Virus record (IMG/VR): IMGVR_UViG_641736163_000006
Reading direction: 5' to 3' (one strand)
DNA length: 13,814 nt
From: a virus
Taxonomy: Duplodnaviria; Heunggongvirae; Uroviricota; Caudoviricetes
Within the stretch, counting starts at the first letter, position 1, and every line of letters begins with the position of its first letter. Below the pieces are notes generated by a model. The model saw only the letters and a program-made list of their open reading frames with translations. It ran no database searches and had not been told where the DNA came from. This document shows, piece by piece, positions 8,934-9,023 of the stretch. The position numbers were made by a program, and so were the translations under genes.

Positions 8934-9023
8934 TCAATCAGAAAGGCGATCCATAAGAACAATAGCAAGACAATAAATTGCCACTACAGCCGCAATAGCC
9001 AGCGCGCATTTGAGAACCAGCAC
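8934..9023 (-). CDS. Candidate 29-aa hydrophobic single-TM peptide (MLVLKCALAIAAVVAIYCLAIVLMDRLSD), not in the ORF track
   Basis: GTG start at 9023-9021 preceded by a perfect SD (AGGAGG, complement of 9029-9034) at 5-nt spacing; stop TGA at 8936-8934. About 70 bp downstream of the SIR2 stop on the same strand. Short ORF, so coding status is uncertain. Confidence 0.3.
   Translation of the reverse strand: MLVLKCALAIAAVVAIYCLAIVLMDRLSD

Follow-up and report, generated by a model that had tools for sequence, protein, structure and literature searches.

The DNA analysed here, referred to as the window, is a stretch of 13,814 nucleotides from a caudoviricete virus record in IMG/VR. The minus strand of its right half follows the early-right direction of a Qin/DicA-type lambdoid prophage, and its genes come in the order cro/dicC-like, ydaT, a replication gene, a DUF977 gene (10494-10901), a SIR2_2-domain gene (9094-10125, minus strand) and the small open reading frame (ORF) considered in this work (8934-9023, minus strand). 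The SIR2_2 gene occupies a variable cargo-gene (moron) slot 70 nt 5' of the small ORF. It is a single-gene element with weak PADLOC matches to Aga_SIR2 and PDC-S21, and its product is called by PGAP as 319 aa against an ORF of 343 aa.

Downstream of the small ORF lies the promoter region of hok. A hok promoter-like site, TTGGCG-17-TAGAAT (8898-8926, minus strand), has a -35 element that starts 8 nt past the stop codon of the small ORF, and hok transcription presumably starts at about 8891, the beginning of the Rfam match and a position that resembles the 5' end of the R1 hok mRNA. The Rfam model RF01794 'sok' matches 8725-8891 on the minus strand with 108 bits, beginning 43 nt beyond the ORF stop. 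This neighbouring sok/hok leader was the only Rfam match found, and none covered the small ORF itself. Since the promoter-like site precedes the Rfam match, the small ORF is placed upstream of the hok promoter and outside the hok mRNA.

The hok mRNA leader/sok region (8731-8891, minus strand), delimited by RF01794 and by alignment to locus L001, is truncated at the hokD Shine-Dalgarno (SD) sequence by an IS481-family element (7635-8730, plus strand) that has landed in the ribosome-binding region of hokD. The window contains no hokD coding sequence. The uninterrupted arrangement is seen in L001, while L002 carries the same IS481 insertion with hokD on its far side. An IS481 element is also found at a similar place in the hok locus of E2348/69 (L151). 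To the left of the IS481 element the sequence has no relation to the prophage, a sign of rearrangement associated with the IS. Positions 1-7566 hold a defence-island remnant, made up of the C-terminal ~970 aa of a Druantia DruE-type helicase (1-2913, minus strand, running off the window edge) and an RT_UG5-nitrilase (DRT) gene that is split by an IS1 copy (3766-5043 and 5851-7566) and has a second IS1 at its 5' end. The two IS1 copies start near 3012 and 5017, 2005 nt apart, are identical over at least their first 300 nt and contain transposase ORFs at 3038-3764 and 5043-5769.

The small ORF itself consists, on the minus strand, of the SD sequence AGGAGG (9034-9029), a TTATC spacer, a GTG start codon (9023-9021), 28 more sense codons and a TGA stop codon (8936-8934). 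An in-frame TAA lies at 9080-9078 with no start codon between it and the GTG, which sets the length of the ORF in the window at 29 aa. Its product, MLVLKCALAIAAVVAIYCLAIVLMDRLSD, is a predicted single-pass membrane peptide with a GRAVY of 1.90 and an uncharged 19-residue core (C6-M24) flanked by K5 and D25-R26. The motifs Y17-C18-L19 and L-M-[D/E]-R-L are conserved. The peptide is net acidic with weak positive flanks, a charge pattern that is unusual compared to known small membrane proteins and gives no defined membrane orientation.

The original prediction, made from the letters alone, had pointed to an AGGAGG followed after 5 nt by a GTG that opens this peptide. The translation agrees exactly and the strand, which had been left out, is minus; likewise, the description of a small ORF with a strong SD and one hydrophobic helix with a short charged tail is supported by the sequence. 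The peptide had also been called unannotated, and this is correct for NCBI PGAP at homologous E. coli loci but not for nr, where the exact peptide is deposited as 'hypothetical protein' or 'membrane protein'. Longer database entries (37-151 aa) with the peptide at their C-terminal end were set aside as in-frame 5' over-extensions across the leader. Taken as a single sequence, the ORF exceeds chance only weakly: the window has one AGGAGG-N5-DTG where 0.27 would be expected, at least one match arises in 47 of 200 shuffles, and the chance that a start is followed by a 29-codon open frame is about 0.25. The case for a gene is thus built on comparative evidence.

For this comparison, 120 IMG/VR loci were gathered with a pattern lying wholly upstream of the ORF, which avoids selection bias. 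Nearly all of the ~125 scorable loci have an intact ORF, and 24 ORF alleles and 20 protein variants are represented; a shifted stop in two alleles adds 2 or 6 residues. Across the alleles the start codon is GTG or ATG, and the SD is preserved as CAGGAG in 6/6 aligned sequences and as CAGGAG(G/A) in all allele types but one. Over the 24 alleles, pN/pS is 0.36 in the ORF frame versus 0.53-0.97 in the other five frames, none of which is stop-free across all alleles, the sole stop of the +2 frame being its own terminal codon. Two competing frames were considered and rejected on this basis. Coding on the antisense strand is interrupted by stops in 9 of the 24 alleles (pN/pS 0.71), and a 61-aa antisense ORF in the deposited annotation of phage HannyBb (L005 2408-2593, minus strand of the locus) is probably a miscall given these stops and the lack of a coding signature. 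Similarly, a 96-aa ORF in the +2 frame of L003 has a pN/pS of 0.97, and its frame is broken in the window.

The pattern of substitution was further examined with a reshuffle, in which 46 minimal substitution events were moved among positions with the same base so that the mutation spectrum was preserved. Synonymous events account for 22 of the 46, versus 12.8 expected (P = 0.0003), none of the events creates a stop, and replacements of core residues by polar or charged residues or proline number 0 (P = 0.0012), these P values being approximate as events were counted without a tree. None of the shuffles reached both values jointly. All replacements are conservative, within V/I/L/M/A/T/F, D/E and R/H. 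Loss of the frame in homologous loci, or substitutions at odds with coding, had been named in the original prediction as what would speak against the ORF; instead, the frame is conserved and the substitutions are of the coding type, with the synonymous bias visible both in the excess of synonymous events and in the pN/pS of the ORF frame. In closely related hok-linked loci the nucleotide diversity is 0.040, 0.059 and 0.088 at codon positions 1, 2 and 3, which is a modest contrast. Loci that have hok only likewise retain the last third of the ORF, whose 3' codons may thus also work as sequence upstream of the hok promoter.

The ORF also has a diverged relative in the prophages of O157:H7/STEC strains. 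A tblastn match at 54% identity led to the 34-aa protein MSDDISLVMEGALAVIAVVGVYCLVVFLMERLGN (WP_001278460.1), a PGAP-called 'hypothetical protein' in RefSeq, with E values of 0.03-0.08 for what were very short queries; single-sequence phmmer misses this type. It is found in 732 genomes, a further 13% of complete E. coli, with a median of 3 copies and a maximum of 6. In the loci compared (L133, L135 and L155-L158), the 34-aa ORF lies upstream of the hokD promoter on the same strand, as in the window and L001. Members of this type (WP_001278460.1, WP_001278450.1 and WP_001278454.1) share with the 29-aa form the slot between a variable upstream gene and the hokD promoter, the orientation and a strong SD, which reads GGGAGGG or AGGAGGG in the same place. 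The two peptides are identical at 15 of 28-29 aligned residues (~52-54%), with Y-C-L and L-M-[D/E]-R-L in common, and the cores align as ALA-IAAVVAIYCLAIVLMDRL in the window with ALAVIAVVGVYCLVVFLMERL in the 34-aa type.

At the nucleotide level, the window ORF and the 34-aa ORF are 64% identical, with 11, 4 and 15 differences at the three codon positions, a dS of ~1.0, a dN of 0.36 and a dN/dS of 0.36. Furthermore, four additional alleles of the 34-aa subfamily differ from its reference mostly at third positions. The 34-aa type departs from the 29-aa form in its acidic 5-residue N-terminal extension (MSDDI), its ATG start, its PGAP annotation, which the 29-aa form lacks, and a hairpin-containing spacer of ~60 nt before the hok promoter. 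In L133 (2588-2650), an O157-type locus, the extra ~60 nt between the 34-aa ORF and the hok promoter hold the near-perfect palindrome CCGTATGGGAATTCCCATATCGG. The O157 ORF is flanked on either side by the motif AAAACG(G)TT, which suggests that the cassette was inserted or exchanged as a unit. By sequence comparison, the closest known entity to the window peptide is this 34-aa RefSeq hypothetical protein of STEC prophages.

The putative mRNA leader of the small ORF is ~31 nt long and unstructured, with a fold z of 0.12 for the sense strand and -0.02 for the antisense strand relative to shuffled sequences. Neither strand folds better than its shuffles, and RNA structure accordingly fails as a cause of the conservation. 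With the evidence from both subfamilies and the absent RNA folding signal, protein coding alone accounts for all of the conservation. On these sequence comparisons, it is likely that the ORF is a real gene for a 29-aa small membrane protein that is independent of SIR2.

The 29-aa type is widespread in E. coli. Of 5426 complete E. coli genomes, 3055 carry the 184-nt block comprising leader, SD, ORF and hok -35 element (80-100% identity), and PGAP leaves the ORF in this block unannotated throughout. The 29-aa type is present in 56% of complete genomes of this species. A block of the ORF, its SD and a ~45-nt leader also occurs in lambdoid phages and in the pINV plasmids of Shigella. The peptide is encoded in 4 sequenced lambdoid phages and on 141 plasmids, of which 124 are from Shigella; the plasmids among the matches listed are mostly from Shigella/EIEC and of ~100-295 kb (pINV-type). 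The pINV variant, MLVLKGTLAIAAVMTIYCLIVVLMERFSD, is 100% conserved in 134 plasmid records. Its ORF starts with ATG and lies next to a degraded hok leader, with icsP ~290 bp downstream, for instance at 2542-2631 in L004 (pCFSAN029787_01) and at 220153-220239 in M90T pWR100 (NC_002698). BL21/REL606 carries the allele MLVLKCTLAIVAVMAIYCLVIVLMDHLSD, and the phages mEp460 and HannyBb are further natural carriers of the locus. The Qin prophage of K-12 has no copy, and its YnfS, which is of similar size, was dismissed as unrelated to the peptide.

Outside these genera, a back-translated scan of GTDB species genomes returned sequences from Escherichia/Shigella only, 3 of them on what are probably contaminant contigs in metagenome-assembled genomes. 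Similarly, a phmmer search with a 30-residue translation from the window against 1.84 billion representative proteins gave 9 near-identical matches and no distant relatives. From these searches the family appears to be confined to Escherichia and Shigella. Searches of Pfam, NCBIfam, PHROGs and PADLOC with the peptide gave nothing meaningful, in line with the original prediction, which saw no match to the Hok, Ldr, TisB, Ibs or Sho families; at E <= 10, with models for Hok_Gef, Ldr, TisB, Ibs, ShoB, Fst and other families, Pfam and NCBIfam had no family for the window peptide and only chance-level matches for the pINV variant. The peptide strings were not found in the literature consulted, which included the hokW-sokW paper, a preprint on Hok diversity and the supplements of the Sakai small-gene and Enterobacteriaceae microproteome studies.

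The region just upstream of the ORF bears on how it is transcribed. A 5' leader block, CATATTTATCAG-N5-GT-N-TACGTC (9041-9066, minus strand), has columns that are invariant in the alignment, and its CATATT (9066-9061) is the -10 element of a weak candidate promoter, TTGAAT-17-CATATT, which is found in most other loci. This putative promoter scores 8/12, under the threshold of the scan. The junction between the 3' flank of SIR2 and the leader of the small ORF in the window (9067-9093, minus strand) was defined by comparison with 2533-2660 of L268, a diverged SIR2 locus, relative to which ~95 nt are missing in the window. In L268, a SIR2 allele of 88.8% identity is followed by a hairpin with a 10-bp stem, the usual upstream region of the ORF and a 35-aa allele of the ORF. 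The ~95-nt deletion takes the 3' arm of this post-SIR2 hairpin (GCGAAGTTAG...CTAACTTCGC) together with the -35 region of the small ORF. The scan found no terminator-like site between SIR2 and the ORF in the window, which suggests that the two are co-transcribed there. The ORF in the window was probably joined to the SIR2 transcription unit by this deletion, as a product of phage mosaicism rather than functional pairing.

The slot upstream of the ORF varies, and is filled by SIR2, two hypothetical proteins, QueH, DUF551 or other genes. Insertions of cargo genes have repeatedly cut the ORF short, as in ST131, E2348/69 and RM9088, where hok is retained but no more than the final 8-13 codons of the ORF remain, directly next to QueH, HNH or paa. 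This repeated truncation indicates that the ORF is dispensable. It behaves as the usual but dispensable right-hand border of the cargo-gene slot, and not as variable cargo.

Other hok loci contain a second and apparently unrelated family of small membrane ORFs, here called ORF-A, with products of 25-27 aa such as MTWPEAFTTVGIAMAVALVVYSICRWG and MNWPEAFAITGVAMAIAFLVYVICRWG. Among 105 hok-anchored loci, ORF-A immediately precedes the hok promoter in 35, and 12 (O157 type) carry it in tandem with the 34-aa ORF. Examples are L162, L169 and L173, among others, as well as L133 (2370-2447) and L155-L158 (~624-707). In L133 and L155-L158 its ATG overlaps the stop codon of the upstream gene (ATGA). ORF-A is unannotated in the PGAP records examined (L133, L135 and L155-L158), and its two sequence types have a common protein pattern with strongly diverged DNA.

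Two alternative explanations tie the small ORF to one of its neighbours. The original prediction had raised the possibility of a partner of the SIR2 protein, which in the window does lie 70 nt upstream on the same strand with no terminator between, and in each of three types of SIR2 locus compared, namely the IS481-interrupted type of the window and L002, the type of L001, and that of L268, a copy of the ORF follows SIR2. However, SIR2 occurs in only 46 of the 5426 E. coli genomes, as two alleles 88.8% identical, and as such is not a dedicated partner of an ORF whose block is found in 3055 genomes behind many upstream genes; ~98% of ORF copies have no SIR2, other genes fill the slot, and this distribution already contradicts the partnership. 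Moreover, in L268 the hairpin and the upstream region proper to the ORF lie between SIR2 and the ORF, it is the ~95-nt deletion that brought the two so close together in the window, and no PADLOC model matches the peptide. A dedicated role of the ORF as partner or effector of SIR2, the defence protein next to it, is therefore close to untenable. A functional partner of Hok, acting as a membrane modulator, immunity factor or co-toxin and forming a third component of hok/sok, would agree with the position of both subfamilies (~52% identical) directly upstream of the hok promoter, with the presence of hok leader and coding sequence in 97 of the 110 loci that have full downstream sequence, with the unrelated ORF-A family (27 aa) filling the same spot in other hok loci, and with the single-pass membrane nature of both Hok and the peptide. 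Yet the ORF and hok are separable both ways: nine loci with hok deleted, and pINV, keep the ORF intact without functional hok, while in the hok-anchored sample the small ORF is absent upstream in 43 of 105 loci and only a remnant in 9. In addition, an identical HokD (WP_000813254.1) stands beside the 29-aa type, the 34-aa type and the remnant, so that Hok does not co-vary with the ORF, and their synteny may be a mere shared position at a recombination boundary. A partnership with Hok is thus quite improbable. The broader idea that the 29-34-aa family and ORF-A together form an unrecognised hok/sok component that tunes Hok, or a second membrane effector without an antitoxin, is doubtful to the same degree; such tuning might take the form of an immunity factor or a potentiator in prophage induction or abortive infection.

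It is also unlikely that the ORF is an independent type I toxin checked by a cis-encoded antisense RNA, as its neighbour hok/sok is, although the original prediction leaned on the toxin-like size and hydrophobicity of the peptide, the ORF adjoins a genuine type I locus that this prediction had overlooked, and annotation pipelines usually miss it, as they do many type I toxins. The search for an antisense promoter gave one promoter-like site, TTAACT-18-TAAAAT (8905-8934, plus strand), present in the window and L003 and aimed into the 3' end of the ORF. Its -35 element is the reverse complement of the hok -10 region, and the site is missing from the 34-aa subfamily (L133) and from hok-less loci (L006) in a consensus scan, whose reach does not extend to atypical promoters. 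The plus strand had no reported terminator-like site at 8600-9300, and shuffled antisense sequence folds just as well as the real one (z = -0.02). Type I toxin mRNAs typically hide the SD, whereas here the SD is strong and belongs to a short sense leader (~31 nt) that shows no structure (z = 0.12). Of the hallmarks of such toxins, the small hydrophobic membrane peptide is present, while no conserved antisense promoter turned up in the consensus scan and the leader shows nothing that would limit translation. Furthermore, the 34-aa type reaches 6 copies per genome, the pINV copy is intact with no recognisable partner, and the toxin models of Pfam and NCBIfam give no match at E <= 10, leaving the suggestion of a type I toxin unsupported. 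The remaining alternative holds that the ORF is incidental, its DNA or RNA being conserved for hok promoter elements or for translation that keeps ribosomes on the early-right transcript. In its favour, the last 8-13 codons persist in hok-only loci, nucleotide diversity in the hok region is low (0.02-0.09), the motif alone is within chance for one window, and the ORF has been lost repeatedly. However, the synonymous excess and the zero count of polar core replacements amount to selection at the amino-acid level, and the protein is conserved between the 29-aa and 34-aa types while their synonymous sites are saturated. The ORF is also intact where hok is gone, its frame is the only one open in all alleles, and RNA structure was undetected, all of which makes an incidental ORF very improbable.

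The reading of the ORF as an accessory phage gene for a small membrane protein allows a possible course of action to be outlined. Its home position is the boundary between the cargo-gene slot that follows the replication genes and hok/sok, at the start of the nin region, and given its early-right orientation the peptide would be made upon transcription of the early-right operon, with its own weak promoter as a possible second source in most loci. In the window, where this -35 element and the post-SIR2 hairpin have been lost, it would most likely be co-transcribed with SIR2. The strong and unmasked SD would favour efficient translation, and the core C6-M24 would be expected to insert as a single helix in the inner membrane. 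There, helix-helix contacts could mediate self-association or binding to a membrane protein of the host or the phage, a role that would be accessory and dispensable to the phage. As far as sequence can tell, the product is most likely a phage accessory single-pass inner-membrane peptide for which translation, insertion and action are all inferred.

Several known systems offer points of comparison. With the Hok/Gef proteins (hokD/hokW of lambdoid prophages and hok/sok of R1), the peptide has in common that it is a small, prophage-borne, single-pass membrane peptide, only 43 nt away, but no Hok_Gef sequence match to it was found and it is without the periplasmic Cys-containing C-terminal domain of Hok. 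Nor does the small ORF share with hok an overlapping mok-like frame, a long structured mRNA or a conserved antisense RNA. KdpF (29 aa), AcrZ, MgtS and CydX are small single-pass membrane regulators of E. coli, encoded on the chromosome in or near the operon of their partner. The peptide resembles these regulators in size, in its one hydrophobic helix, in an ordinary strong SD with no dedicated antitoxin and in the proposed helix-helix mode, and differs from them in being phage-borne with changing neighbours and in showing no sequence similarity. Similarly, a mosaic boundary, dispensability and a patchy distribution are shared with phage morons, the O157 type being in addition followed by a hairpin and flanked by AAAACG(G)TT, whereas compared to the true cargo genes (SIR2, QueH, paa and HNH) the ORF is far more widespread and forms the fixed right-hand border of the slot. 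The peptide is best classed as a previously uncharacterised phage-borne single-pass small membrane protein, and is mechanistically unsurprising so far.

The position of the ORF has practical consequences for studies of its neighbours. As it lies against the hok promoter, deletions or clones of hok/sok or of cargo genes may add or remove it unknowingly. In addition, tests of phage defence by SIR2 need a control for the ORF, since both are probably on one transcript in the window. The ORF marks the right border of a lambdoid-prophage slot that carries defence and virulence genes (SIR2, QueH, paa and HNH). Standard annotation skips the 29-aa form, and its annotation would be worthwhile. If the peptide is made, it would be among the most widespread uncharacterised small membrane proteins of E. 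coli.
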